Of a DNA stretch of 64,000 nt, positions 59,924-64,000 are shown piece by piece; positions within the stretch are counted from its first letter, which is position 1, and the number at the start of each line of letters is the position of its first letter. This DNA is from an uncultured Gemmatimonadales bacterium (GTDB lineage: Bacteria; Gemmatimonadota; Gemmatimonadetes; Longimicrobiales; RSA9): assembly GCA_963798085.1 (NCBI GenBank), contig CAWCRS010000003.1:800001-864000 (forward strand), read 5' to 3'. The notes below the pieces were generated by a model. That model was not told the DNA's origin and ran no database searches. It worked only from the letters and a program-made list of their open reading frames with translations. Both the position numbers and the translations under genes were made by a program.

Positions 59924-60542
59924 TCAGCCCAGCAGTGGCAGCTGTGACCTCGCCAGCGCCGGCACTTCGTGGCAGCGCCGGCACCTCGCCTCGTACGACT
60001 CGCAGTCCGCCGACCTGGATCGTCGGCCCCTCAGCGGCGCCGGGCTGGCCATCGATCAGGCGCTGGTTGCGCGTGGCCAGCTGCCCCGCAGCGCACGCAG
60101 ATCGCGTGCAGCTTGTCCACCTGCTCGGCGATCGGCCAGCAGCGCGGGTATCGGGCCGAACGGCTCGCCCCGGAAGTCCATGTCGGTGCCGGCCACGATC
60201 ACGCGAACGCCGCGGTCGGCGAGGTCGTTGGCGACATCGACGATGCCCATCGTCCAGGAACTGCGCCTCGTCGATCGCGACCACGTGCCGTGCCGCGGGC
60301 GCACCCGCTCGCGATCTGCTCCGACGAGCTACGGGACCGGCTCCGACAGCTGGCGCGCGCCATCGTGCGTGGTGACGCGAGCAGACGCCCGCGTAGCGGT
60401 CGTCGAGGTGCGACTTGAAGACCTGCACCTGCCTGCGGGCGATCACCGCGCGCCGGACGCGGCGCAGCAGCTCCTCCGACTTGCCGCTGAACATCACGCC
60501 GCTGATGACCTCGATCCAGCCGCCGGCTCCAGCGTAGTCCAT
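59924..60542 (-). pseudogene. tdk: Thymidine kinase, frameshifted as assembled
   Basis: [52 protein letters not shown]. Confidence 0.93.
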
Positions 60543-60845: not shown

Positions 60846-61782
60846 ATGATCGAATGAAGCGAGTCGCGCGGGCACCGGTCCGAGTCTCCGGGATGCCGAA
60901 GCGTTGCTGCGCAGTCTGGTAGGCGTGGCCGGCGCGTTCATCGTAACCGATGCCGAAGGTGTGCTCCGCCGTATTCTCGTGCAGCCCGAGTCCGGCGCCA
61001 GCGAGCGTCGGATCGCACGCAATGTTCTGTCCGCACTCAAGGCGAGATACGGCGTCGATCTCGACGCGTCCGCCATCAGCATAAACGCGGCACCTGCCGA
61101 TAATTCAGGTGACCCGATCACTCTCGCCCGCATGCCGGGCCGGACAACGCCCGCGATCCGCGGTATGGTCCGCTCGGCCGAGTCGCCGAGAGTGATCGCA
61201 GTACGACCTCCCAGAACGGATGATGACGTGCCGACCCTCGTGCGCCAGGAAAACGCTCCGACGATTTCGCCATTGGCGCACGCGCGGCCGGCCCTCGTAC
61301 GCAGGGTAGCGGCGGCGTTGCCGTCGCGCGCCAGCAATGCGGTCCCCTTGGAGCGCATTGACGTGGATGCGGCGTCGGTGCCTGTCGTCCTCGACCAGGG
61401 CAGCGCCATGCGTCCACGTCTCGAACAGGCCGAGCTGCGTCGTGTCGCCGGCACACTTCGTTGCCGCGTCGTGATCGCAACGGGTAACGAGCGCTACGCG
61501 GGTGTGGCCGACGCACTCAATGGTCAGACAACGGAAACCGACCTGGCGGGTCGCGTGACGGTAGACGCGCTGCGTTCCGCGCGCACACCGCGTGATCCCA
61601 TCCAGTTCGAGGGCGCCGCCCTCGTGGATGTCGCCGGTCGTCCGCACGTGGTCATCAGTCTGGCTGTGTGGAGTGGACATGATTTCGAGGCGATCGCCAG
61701 CGCCGAACCCATGCGCGGCTCGCCCGTGGAAGCGACAGCCCGTGCCGTGATCGCCGCCATCAGTTCGCGGTGGCTCGGCTAG
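60846..61782 (+). CDS. Two-domain hypothetical protein (start ATG 60846 needs a 1-nt correction; intact ORF from 60904)
   Basis: AE.LL.SL.GV....IV......RI.V.........RNV.SAL.A.YG...D...ISI N domain, Pro/Arg linker, C domain ending EATARAVIAAI; GAGAGGG RBS before 60846. Confidence 0.75.
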
Positions 61783-61960
61783 GCAGTACGAGCATTGAAA
61801 GCGGTGGCATCAGCCGCCGCCTGGCATACACAACGGAGAAACAAAGGACAACGGAAAGGAGCCCCCGACCCACTGACAGCGAAGCCCCAGCACTAGCGAA
61901 GAAGCGGAGAGTCGCGACCCCCAAAAAAGGTCGACGTCACTCCGAAGGAGGTGAGGCTGG

Positions 61961-62033
61961 GTGCAAACAGTTCTGGACGTTCTGGGCGCAATTCTTAGCG
62001 CCCTCTCGGGTGGGTTTATTCAGCGTGAACTAA
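61961..62033 (+). CDS. Putative 23-aa hydrophobic peptide MQTVLDVLGAILSALSGGLFSVN (requires removal of one T at 62015-62017)
   Basis: Perfect SD AAGGAGGTGA at 61945-61954, GTG 61961, TAA 62031-62033 one base out of frame; the next gene has its own ATG at 62061. Confidence 0.6.
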
Positions 62034-62060
62034 GTGCGGTTGGGGGCTCCTCGACACAAC

Positions 62061-63408
62061 ATGACGCGGAAGTCCGCATTACGTTTTTATCGAACGTTGC
62101 CGTGGCTTGGCTGCTGACTGGCTTTGGGCGTTGCCATTCCCGAACCGCTGTTGCACCTCCAAGCTCAACACGTTGCTGGCTTATTTGCGTTTTCGGTGTG
62201 GCCATTCTCGCTGAGGGACTTGCAATAGACTTTGGCGTGGGAAAGCAGGCTCGGTCCTCGATGGCATTTCTGCCATTGCTGGCGTCGCACTGTTCTTCCC
62301 ACCGGCGTTTCAATGGTGGTCGGCTGCAAGTAGTCTGTATGCCATATCGAATTTGGTCTTTAGGCGGCAATGGAATTTCGAAGGTCATTTCAATATCTCC
62401 CAGGCTGCTCTCTCGGTTGGCCTTGCAGGTGCGTTATATATCACGTTCATGTCTCTCGATCAAGCAAAGTCTGCCACTTGCGTGCGCTCTCAGTAGCCTA
62501 TTGGGCGTTTGCCGGCTTGGCCATCAGTGTTTTTCACAGTCAACATCTGTTTTCCAGTTGTGCTATTGCGGTGATTCGAGAACAGACCGGTGATCGAGTA
62601 CGCTCGCAGGTAATCGGGCCTCAGTGGTGGCAATCTGTGGTACGACCTATTGGCAAGTCCAATTGCGATAGTCCCAGCAGTTCTCTACTTCCAGCACTAT
62701 GATCGGAGGGATTGCTCATTATCCTCCTGCCATGCTGCTGATTCGATATTCCTACCAATCGAAACTGCAGCTCGAAGAGGCGAACCGTGATCTGCTGAAG
62801 GTGCTTGTCAAAGCCATCGAGACCCGTGATCCATATACCTCCGGACATTCGGTGCGCGTCGCCACTATTTCACGCGCGATCGCTGAAAGACATCGGGTTG
62901 CCGCGCCGTCAATTGGACGAAATAGAACTGCCGCGCTCCTACATGACATTGGTAAGATCGATTCCGTCTACGAGCTAGTAATTCGAAAGCCACATGATCT
63001 CACGGACGTAGAGCGAACACTGATCAGACGCACGCAACCAAGGGGGCTGATCTACTGCAGTCGCTGAGCTCCGTCAGCAAGGAGGTCATCTTAGCGGTAC
63101 GCCACCATCATGAACGTTACGACGGCACGGGCTATCCGTCGGGGTTGAACGGCGAGGAGATTCCGATCGCAGCTCGCATCATAATGATGTCTGACTCAGT
63201 CGATGCGATGTTATCAGACCGGCCATATAGGCGAGCCCTGCCGTTGACGAAAGTTAGATCTGAACTCATCCGTTGCTCTGGCTCACAATTCGATCCAACG
63301 ATCATACAGACCGTGTTGCAGCATAACACGCTTGAGCGAGCAGCAGCGCTCGTGGGCCGCCCACAGTCTGCCGACCTCCAGCTCGTCACCGTGACTGGAT
63401 CGGCATAG
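62061..63408 (+). pseudogene. HD-GYP phosphodiesterase with N-terminal multi-TM sensor domain, several frameshifts as assembled
   Basis: Hydrophobic N-terminal fragments, then LVKAIETRDPYTSGHS.RVA, AALLHDIGKI, VRHHHERYDGTGYP.GL.GEEIP..ARII...D..DAM.SDRPYR. Confidence 0.9.
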
Positions 63409-63571
63409 GCGTTTCGACTCCTGCCCTTGCTGACGGCAGTTCAAAGCAATCTTGAAAGCGGAGTCGCTTGCATCTTGCTACGTCCCACCTAGCCATTGCA
63501 AGCGCGTGCAATCAGGGCAATATTGCCTTTGACTTGTTGTATCTCCGGCCACGACCGACCGGGTTAGCGCC

Positions 63572-64000
63572 GTGTCAGCCGTTCGAATACACACTCTCGG
63601 AGACTGCTTCGTAAGAGTTGATGGCGGCACGGTGAGGCGTCCGCCGCCACTCCAGTTCGCCGTGCTTGTGTATCTTGCCTGGCGGGGTGACTATGCAATT
63701 TCCGCCAATGAACTAGCGGCGCTTTTTTGGGGCGAACTGCCAGAAAGTCGTGCTAAACGTTGCCTCAGTCAGTGTCTCTATGCCCTGAGGCGCTCTTTGT
63801 TATTGCCGATAGACGTAGCGAGCGGTACCGTTGTGTTGAAACCTTCTTCCATTTTCGTTGACGCGAAAGCGTTCCTTGTGCTAGTCGCCGCTGGCAAACT
63901 TCGTGACGCCGCTGCTATGCACTCCGGTACGTTCTTGGCCCACCTACGACTGCGCGGGAAGCGTGACTTCAGATTTTGGCATGACAGGGTTGCAGCTGAT
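63572..64000 (+). CDS. AfsR/SARP-family (winged HTH + BTAD) transcriptional regulator, 3'-truncated by the window; absent from the ORF track
   Basis: Manual translation from GTG 63572: RIHTLG...AVLVYLA...ELAALFWGE....AKRCLSQCLYALRRSL...VDAKAF...GTFL...DFRFW; no stop before 64000. Confidence 0.85.
   Translation, partial: MSAVRIHTLGDCFVRVDGGTVRRPPPLQFAVLVYLAWRGDYAISANELAALFWGELPESRAKRCLSQCLYALRRSLLLPIDVASGTVVLKPSSIFVDAKAFLVLVAAGKLRDAAAMHSGTFLAHLRLRGKRDFRFWHDRVAAD

Follow-up and report, generated by a model that had tools for sequence, protein, structure and literature searches.

A conserved micropeptide ORF inside a folded RNA leader precedes MASE9-HD-GYP phosphodiesterase genes in several bacterial phyla

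A short hydrophobic ORF enclosed in a folded RNA, together with a two-domain upstream protein and a MASE9-HD-GYP phosphodiesterase, makes up a genetic module that is real, widespread and undescribed, and that is assembled from known kinds of parts. Among the relatives compared, the trio of genes is intact in Gemmatimonadota, Bacillota and Actinomycetota. Our best reading of the whole, to which we give about an even chance, is that of a four-part c-di-GMP control module in which a membrane peptide would be the partner of MASE9 and expression would be gated by the RNA.

The locus and its relatives

In the 64,000-nucleotide stretch of DNA analysed here (the window), the upstream gene, the micropeptide ORF and the HD-GYP gene all lie in the same orientation (60846..63408, + strand). 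A previous interpretation made from the letters alone (the sequence-only reading) had called three co-oriented genes there, with a Shine-Dalgarno (SD), a GTG start, a TAA stop and an ATG 27 nt further on, and each of these is in place. The gene for the upstream two-domain protein spans 60846..61782; the SD of the peptide ORF (AAGGAGGTGA, 61945..61954) is conserved in aligned relatives; the micropeptide ORF (61961..62033) starts with GTG at 61961 and stops with TAA at 62031-62033; and the MASE9-HD-GYP gene (62061..63408), intact in relatives, begins with ATG at 62061. What had been presented as a hydrophobic ORF of about 23 aa nevertheless stands only in its signals, as the frame is closed as written and requires a one-base indel that had not been declared: the frame from 61961 runs for 210 codons with no stop at codon 23. 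The closest relative found, L266 (one match in a metagenome collection), has all three genes intact and a peptide ORF of 23 codons, and its alignment with the window places one additional base in the latter near 62019-62021. When this base is discounted the ORF has 23 codons and its tail becomes F-I-S-V-N, in place of the L-F-S-V-N initially proposed. Among public runs, where one DNA run and no RNA run was listed, reads covered neither the peptide nor the leader. In the upstream gene, a stop follows ATG 60846 in its own frame and the long open frame begins at 60850 (60850-61782), so that this start also needs an indel. The HD-GYP gene likewise carries all the motifs announced for it (HD, HHE, GYP and DRPYR) but is split by 9, 9 and 10 frameshifts with respect to three intact homologues of 64-67% identity.

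We used the neighbouring thymidine kinase gene (59926-60542, - strand) as a control for assembly errors. Since it is also broken, by 6 frameshifts, those of the HD-GYP gene are most probably errors of the assembly and not signs of decay. That the locus is a decayed pseudogene in this genome, or the ORF a chance frame, would account for the peptide and HD-GYP ORFs both being closed as written, but with a thymidine kinase equally broken, and with catalytic motifs and relatives intact, we regard this as highly improbable. The thymidine kinase gene is divergent from the module in the window and likewise in L002, L003, L005 and L006, and G+C content drops from about 66% to 51-57% across the leader, enzyme and regulator genes (61800-64000).

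Five intact orthologues of the enzyme consist of MASE9 (PF20972, above cut-off in 4/5) and HD-GYP (HD_5); the broken copy of the window gives no PF20972 match and aligns end to end with its intact homologues. The HD, HHE and GYP motifs are present in 40/40 intact members and, across a frameshift, in the window. The specificity motif RxY[K/R], described in the main text of a preprint (bioRxiv 10.1101/2021.11.05.467447) as that of c-di-GMP, with Gln or Asn there shifting specificity to cGAMP, reads R-P-Y-R in the same 40 members and in the window copy. By motif, then, the enzyme is a c-di-GMP-type HD-GYP phosphodiesterase, with hydrolysis of c-di-GMP predicted, and cGAMP, which had been left open as a substrate, is disfavoured. 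The sensor domain expected on the enzyme turned out to be MASE9, an 8-TM sensor whose ligand is not known and, in the main text of the same preprint by Galperin (bioRxiv 10.1101/2021.11.05.467447), is predicted to bind within the membrane.

The small ORF before MASE9 is more than chance. In the host family, selection by Pfam alone gave 21 MASE9 loci (two of them near-identical) from 20 of 73 genomes; an SD and a hydrophobic ORF of 19-25 aa occur at 20/21, the contig of the 21st beginning inside the ORF, and the upstream protein stands directly before the ORF at 14/21. An RNA model built from the leaders matched 24 of 151 class genomes, with one match each, and each of the 23 new matches (23/23) is accompanied by the upstream protein and by an ORF with an SD, and 21/23 by MASE9-HD-GYP, the other two being at contig ends. 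The expectation of a small ORF and of trio synteny at orthologous loci is borne out by both sets. A first DNA pattern had given 21 matches in 401 genomes of the phylum, 2 of them real. When all GTDB species were scanned with a pattern, 74 matches came up, 58 adjoining one or both genes and 16 neither; the former comprise 51/53 matches titled Gemmatimonadota and 7/21 others (including two Acidimicrobiales and one Glassbacteria), some of the matches outside Gemmatimonadota being perhaps misbinned.

Similar trios had been suggested for other phyla, and they do exist. In Bacillota, the phylum of an Oscillospiraceae MAG, MASE9 was found in 41/121 genomes, and among the best 30 loci the upstream protein is present at 20 and the peptide at 19 of these, with one further locus having the peptide alone. 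In Actinomycetota (MASE9 in 53/121 genomes), 18 of the best 30 loci have the peptide, a count that includes one unpublished genome (G538), and at 9 the flank includes the upstream protein, frequently divergent. The peptide filter used in these two phyla made two false calls. As the flank read has no peptide at 12/30 Actinomycetota and 10/30 Bacillota loci, MASE9 can occur without a peptide directly upstream. Among cultured organisms, the Natranaerobius record holds the trio (upstream homologue 99.4% by hhalign, peptide unannotated), as does the Subdoligranulum record, and in that of Euzebya the peptide precedes a MASE-like cyclase gene. On a Euzebya plasmid (L104, 187-7328) the peptide ORF lies amid three MASE-like GGDEF/EAL genes, one MASE-like gene having a DUF5317-like sequence fused at its N-terminus. 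Loci of the unpublished genomes G016 and G019 are included in the alignments, the RNA model, the host-family and covariation counts and the query of the ESM Atlas, which returned unnamed clusters only; the analyses of P1 shuffles and geometry, peptide dN/dS and MASE9 co-variation described below leave out G016, G019 and G538.

Downstream of the module the window holds the start of a gene for a SARP/BTAD-STAND(AAA_16)-TPR regulator (63572..64000, + strand), which continues past the window and is followed by an AraC-type gene. Such a regulator was found in 8/10 Gemmatimonadota regions (62 of 118 ORFs scanned), with an AraC-type gene beside it in 6; in 3 regions a 4Fe-4S diguanylate cyclase lies upstream. 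Bacillota regions (63 of 121 ORFs scanned) have hpf (ribosome hibernation) upstream in 4/5, DUF5317 downstream in 5/5, flagellar genes near in 4 and secA after the module in 2.

The folded leader and the upstream protein

The peptide ORF is surrounded by a covarying folded RNA, which the sequence-only reading had overlooked and which is absent from Rfam: in a search of 9 loci with Rfam covariance models the best E was 2.5, with no gathering match and no known cyclic-dinucleotide riboswitch. Its outer helix P1, a long-range helix of about 13 bp (5' arm 61858..61870, 3' arm 62038..62050, + strand), encloses the peptide ORF plus 2-4 AGCG(G/A/U)A repeats, which average 3.2 copies per leader versus 0.05 in a coding control. 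P1 is 88% paired, with 6/12 pairs changed on both sides, and no purine run other than the one in its 3' arm precedes the start of the phosphodiesterase. The window has three AGCG(A/G)AG repeats on the + strand (61878..61909; 61878-84, 61895-901 and 61903-909), the last of which is invariant in 21/21 aligned sequences, and an irregular inner hairpin on the same strand (61886..61961; P2 61886-91/61956-61, P4 61911-19/61929-35) with the peptide SD in an internal loop. In P4 4/6 pairs covary, and the fold of the inner hairpin has a z of -3.65, with 0/200 shuffles as good. Over the 21 sequences 12/29 named pairs are changed on both sides, a number reached in 0/500 shuffles, for a structure derived from the same 21 sequences and with kin inflating the count; pairing is 82% in the aligned leaders versus 30-52% in slid controls. 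Pairing in helix 3 is only 56%, the register in which the invariant repeat pairs being variable, as would suit a site for a protein or a ligand. We also weighed by eye a kink-turn, a GNRA/boxB and an invertible-DNA reading and dropped them, because covariation of the inner helices indicates RNA and no recombinase is present among the scanned neighbours.

P1 was better than in shuffled spacers at 30/39 loci of the Gemmatimonadota group, 14/17 of Bacillota, 5/13 of Actinomycetota and 2/2 others (71 of 82 picks; 7 were dropped and 4 had no upstream DNA). In Gemmatimonadota the median distance from the peptide stop to the 3' arm is 5.5 nt, and from that arm to the start of the enzyme 10.5 nt; an SD for the enzyme lies outside P1 at just 1/30 loci of the group (29/30 without). 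This geometry is that of translational coupling, and we would predict that the enzyme depends on the upstream ORF. Occlusion of the ribosome-binding site is, on the other hand, not the universal role of P1, because in Bacillota the enzyme has a free SD outside P1 at 8/14 loci (6/14 without) and the distance from stop to arm is longer (median 11.5 nt), and because the 3' arm is pyrimidine in one Gemmatimonadota locus (L073). At those Bacillota loci with a free SD, P1 must therefore do something more or something else. U-rich tails follow P1 at 19/30 loci and, in Bacillota, at 9/14; these tails would permit attenuation, with processing as another option in Bacillota. The window showed no sigma-70-like promoter in a promoter scan and no terminator or U tail at P1.

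The protein encoded upstream matches no Pfam or NCBIfam family; its own family, whose range is based on genome searches, has 2859 representatives at E<=0.001. The predicted structure has two confident domains (pLDDT 94-98) joined by a low-confidence linker. The N-domain resembles CDF C-terminal domains (6vd9_A, Z 7.1, rmsd 2.5, 60 aligned). In the model the C-domain appears as two dsRBD-like repeats; the fold closest to it is a regulatory domain that binds amino acids and not RNA (LeuA/citramalate synthase, 3f6g_B, Z 9.2, rmsd 3.1, 109 aligned; Foldseek E 4e-4), with weaker matches to tandem dsRBD-RNA complexes (E about 1e-3), and fold matches overall are at 4-14% identity. In the Actinomycetota set, repeats were found at 13/14 loci with the upstream family in the genome and at 0/5 without it, these five genomes, which may be incomplete, probably representing <=2-3 independent losses and four of them being MAGs of 1.3-1.8 Mb. 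As the repeats track the upstream protein, we infer from this co-occurrence and from the fold that it is a candidate RNA-binding regulator that reads the AGCG(G/A/U)A repeats. The sequence-only reading had suggested an effector; the conserved RNA enclosing the ORF indicates translational control and makes an RNA-binding regulator upstream more likely than a downstream effector. One Phycisphaerales chromosome record (L160) has an element of the Gemmatimonadota type, peptide and enzyme, with the upstream gene nowhere in the genome; it may reflect either transfer or misassembly, and departs from the rule that the repeats go with the upstream protein. Paralogues of the family, 2-4 per genome, occur away from this RNA element. 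Those of L024, L025 and L027-L030, frequently tandem pairs, have response regulators, thioredoxin reductase or sugar-phosphate enzymes as neighbours; over the 520 nt read they have neither a peptide nor the RNA element.

CsrA was also considered as the protein that reads the repeats, which are GGA-like. It is present in 3/25 Gemmatimonadota genomes with the element, three single-contig genomes being among the misses, and is therefore not the reader; elsewhere it was found in 2/19 Actinomycetota and 18/20 Bacillota genomes. The genome of the window has two CsrA genes (G000:C3:740410 and C7:653433), unlike most carriers in this phylum.

The micropeptide and its possible roles

Peptide ORFs in intact relatives are SD-led and hydrophobic and encode 14-34 residues (merely 14-16 in some members); comparison of the sequences describes a selected hydrophobic helix of membrane length. 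By dN/dS, the amino-acid sequence is shown to be under purifying selection (0.15 for 21 disjoint pairs selected on peptide identity, 0.21 for 23 pairs selected on MASE9 identity), so that the product itself matters. Among 76 peptides (82 automatic picks less 7 dropped, plus L266), Gly occurs within the last nine residues in 75 and Trp within the last five in 53, Trp being terminal in 34. The rule of a GG five residues from the end did not survive the comparison: GG stands exactly there in 15/76 (3/45 in the Gemmatimonadota group) and anywhere in the last nine residues in 25/76. A double-glycine pheromone therefore finds no support. No C39 peptidase ABC exporter was found among 125 of 239 ORFs scanned in 18 regions of 14-18 kb. 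Three peptides searched in NCBIfam gave no family match. At L128 and L136, whose 27-aa peptides are nearly identical, an ORF directly after the enzyme gene resembles, by eye, a B12-binding radical SAM enzyme, which could modify the peptide.

The nearest target of such a peptide would be the membrane-embedded site of MASE9. The co-variation between peptide and sensor that had been proposed as a check is weak and confounded by kinship, with a partial rho of 0.34 for MASE9 and 0.22 for the HD domain. Complex prediction for a natural 34-residue homologue of the peptide with its own MASE9 domain scored 0.29 and 0.01 (mark 0.32), which weighs on neither side. In the reading that we prefer, the upstream protein, the folded leader holding the peptide ORF and the MASE9-HD-GYP enzyme would, by comparison of the loci, be read from one transcript. 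The peptide, selected as a product, would enter the membrane and bind MASE9 as a modulator, tuning hydrolysis of c-di-GMP. In Gemmatimonadota, the start region of the enzyme would be held in P1, and a ribosome that reaches the end of the peptide ORF, some 5 nt short of the 3' arm, would open it, so that synthesis of the enzyme would be coupled to that of the peptide. Finally, the upstream protein would bind the AGCG(G/A/U)A repeats around the peptide SD and set how often ribosomes start there, as the co-occurrence and the fold suggest. A more extensive version, in which the modules are a cross-phylum class, MASE9 has the micropeptide, or a tail of it ending in Trp, as the ligand that switches HD-GYP, the RNA-binding upstream family reads the repeats with feedback on c-di-GMP, DUF5317 is a processing or accessory subunit in Gram-positives and the STAND-TPR regulator is the output in Gemmatimonadota, we offer only tentatively.

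The peptide could instead be a precursor from which the C-terminal tail is cut, released and sensed by MASE9 as a signal between cells. Gram-positive peptides are indeed signal-peptide-like, with a net charge of +2.2 over the first 8 residues, a hydrophobic core, small residues and Trp in the last five (26/31), and one Actinomycetota homologue (L204) repeats its five C-terminal residues. In Bacillota, moreover, the enzyme is followed by DUF5317, whose presence accompanies the basic N-terminus of Gram-positive peptides. This protein (L221:288-902 and 11 homologues) has an invariant Asn, NGGxMP and two Asp, a confident membrane fold (pLDDT 91.5), and the occurrence pattern of MASE9 in 14 control genomes, Thermus and Thermotoga holding both. 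It is nevertheless unlike signal peptidase II (hhalign probability 1.9%, no fold match), so that a protease of this kind was rejected; its model has no match among solved folds, and a literature search on DUF5317 found nothing. In the class to which the window belongs it was found in 0 of 101 genomes, and the peptides of Gemmatimonadota also lack a basic N-region (net charge -0.2). Among the scanned neighbours no exporter or peptidase is constant beside the module, the peptides fall far below the cut-off of AgrD and NprX models, and GG+5 is kept in few of them, all of which makes a released signal rather unlikely in our judgement.

We hold no higher an opinion of a pure leader peptide, that is, an ORF that senses in cis how the membrane is targeted, how much Trp is supplied or whether ribosomes are available and only gates expression of the enzyme, its sequence being kept for contacts with the ribosome or SRP and not for binding MASE9. 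The position of the ORF inside P1 and near its 3' arm, the frequent terminal Trp, the hpf gene ahead of the module in Bacillota and the U-rich tails that permit an attenuator are all compatible with it. The peptides, however, contain no single-codon run, and P1 in the window has neither U tail nor terminator. Further, the peptide is kept where P1 and the repeats are undetected (L185, L191, L198, L205), and its ORF is duplicated in tandem at 2/30 Actinomycetota loci (L198, L209; identical copies, 113 and 147 nt apart); together with the selection on its sequence, this argues for a job of its own. Such a job could be exerted by the peptide alone in the membrane, P1 then being a stem for processing or protection from which a stable mini-mRNA is released. 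Type I toxin mRNAs have 5'-3' pairing, and the leader resembles them in that an end-to-end helix of 12-20 bp surrounds a hydrophobic ORF whose SD is buried; but the linkage to MASE9 genes is fixed across phyla, the RNA model gives a single match in each of the 24 matched genomes, and the three peptides searched have no family in NCBIfam, so we consider this quite improbable.

Relation to known systems

No description of the module was found in the literature searched, which included the main texts of two ncRNA surveys; their supplements (PMC11109978, PMC8632094) or that of the MASE9 preprint might list the motif. The proteins closest to the enzyme are the MASE9-HD-GYP proteins (PF20972; TM1467 and S. 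venezuelae HdgA; bioRxiv 10.1101/2021.11.05.467447), which share the domain pair, the RxY[K/R] motif and the predicted intramembrane ligand. The main text of that preprint does not contain 'small protein', 'peptide' or 'upstream', although its supplements may differ, and the module adds to it the peptide, the RNA and the upstream protein. Besides a concrete candidate ligand for MASE9, the module offers three undescribed parts: a micropeptide family missed by annotation pipelines, a covarying RNA outside Rfam and a family of thousands of proteins that are candidates for RNA binding. Since there are cultured carriers (Natranaerobius, Subdoligranulum, Euzebya), signalling from peptide to c-di-GMP is directly testable.

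Hydrophobic peptides of 20-50 residues that adjoin or act on membrane proteins include MgrB-PhoQ, SafA, KdpF and AcrZ. The micropeptide resembles MgrB-type modulators in being a selected hydrophobic helix of membrane length, with binding to the sensor predicted here, but its target would be an HD-GYP phosphodiesterase and its gene lies inside a structured leader. A short hydrophobic precursor gene beside its receptor is also the arrangement of SHP/Rgg, ComS, Phr and double-glycine pheromones; unlike these, the module has no RRNPP receptor or kinase and no constant exporter, and GG+5 is not kept.

As for the leader, the mgtQ ORF before mgtB in Salmonella is reported to be a small intergenic ORF that, when translated, releases from sequestration the initiation region of a gene for a membrane protein (PMC8092293). 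Both systems have a downstream initiation region in a helix beside the stop of an upstream ORF, but here the ORF lies within an end-to-end helix, its hydrophobic product is selected, motifs are repeated and the target is a second-messenger enzyme. Finally, phage peptides are reported to bind the diguanylate cyclase YfiN (PMC8085984), likewise pairing a small peptide with a membrane c-di-GMP enzyme, with the action of our peptide being putative. Those peptides are foreign and act on a cyclase, whereas the one described here is chromosomal, probably co-transcribed with its enzyme and conserved across phyla.
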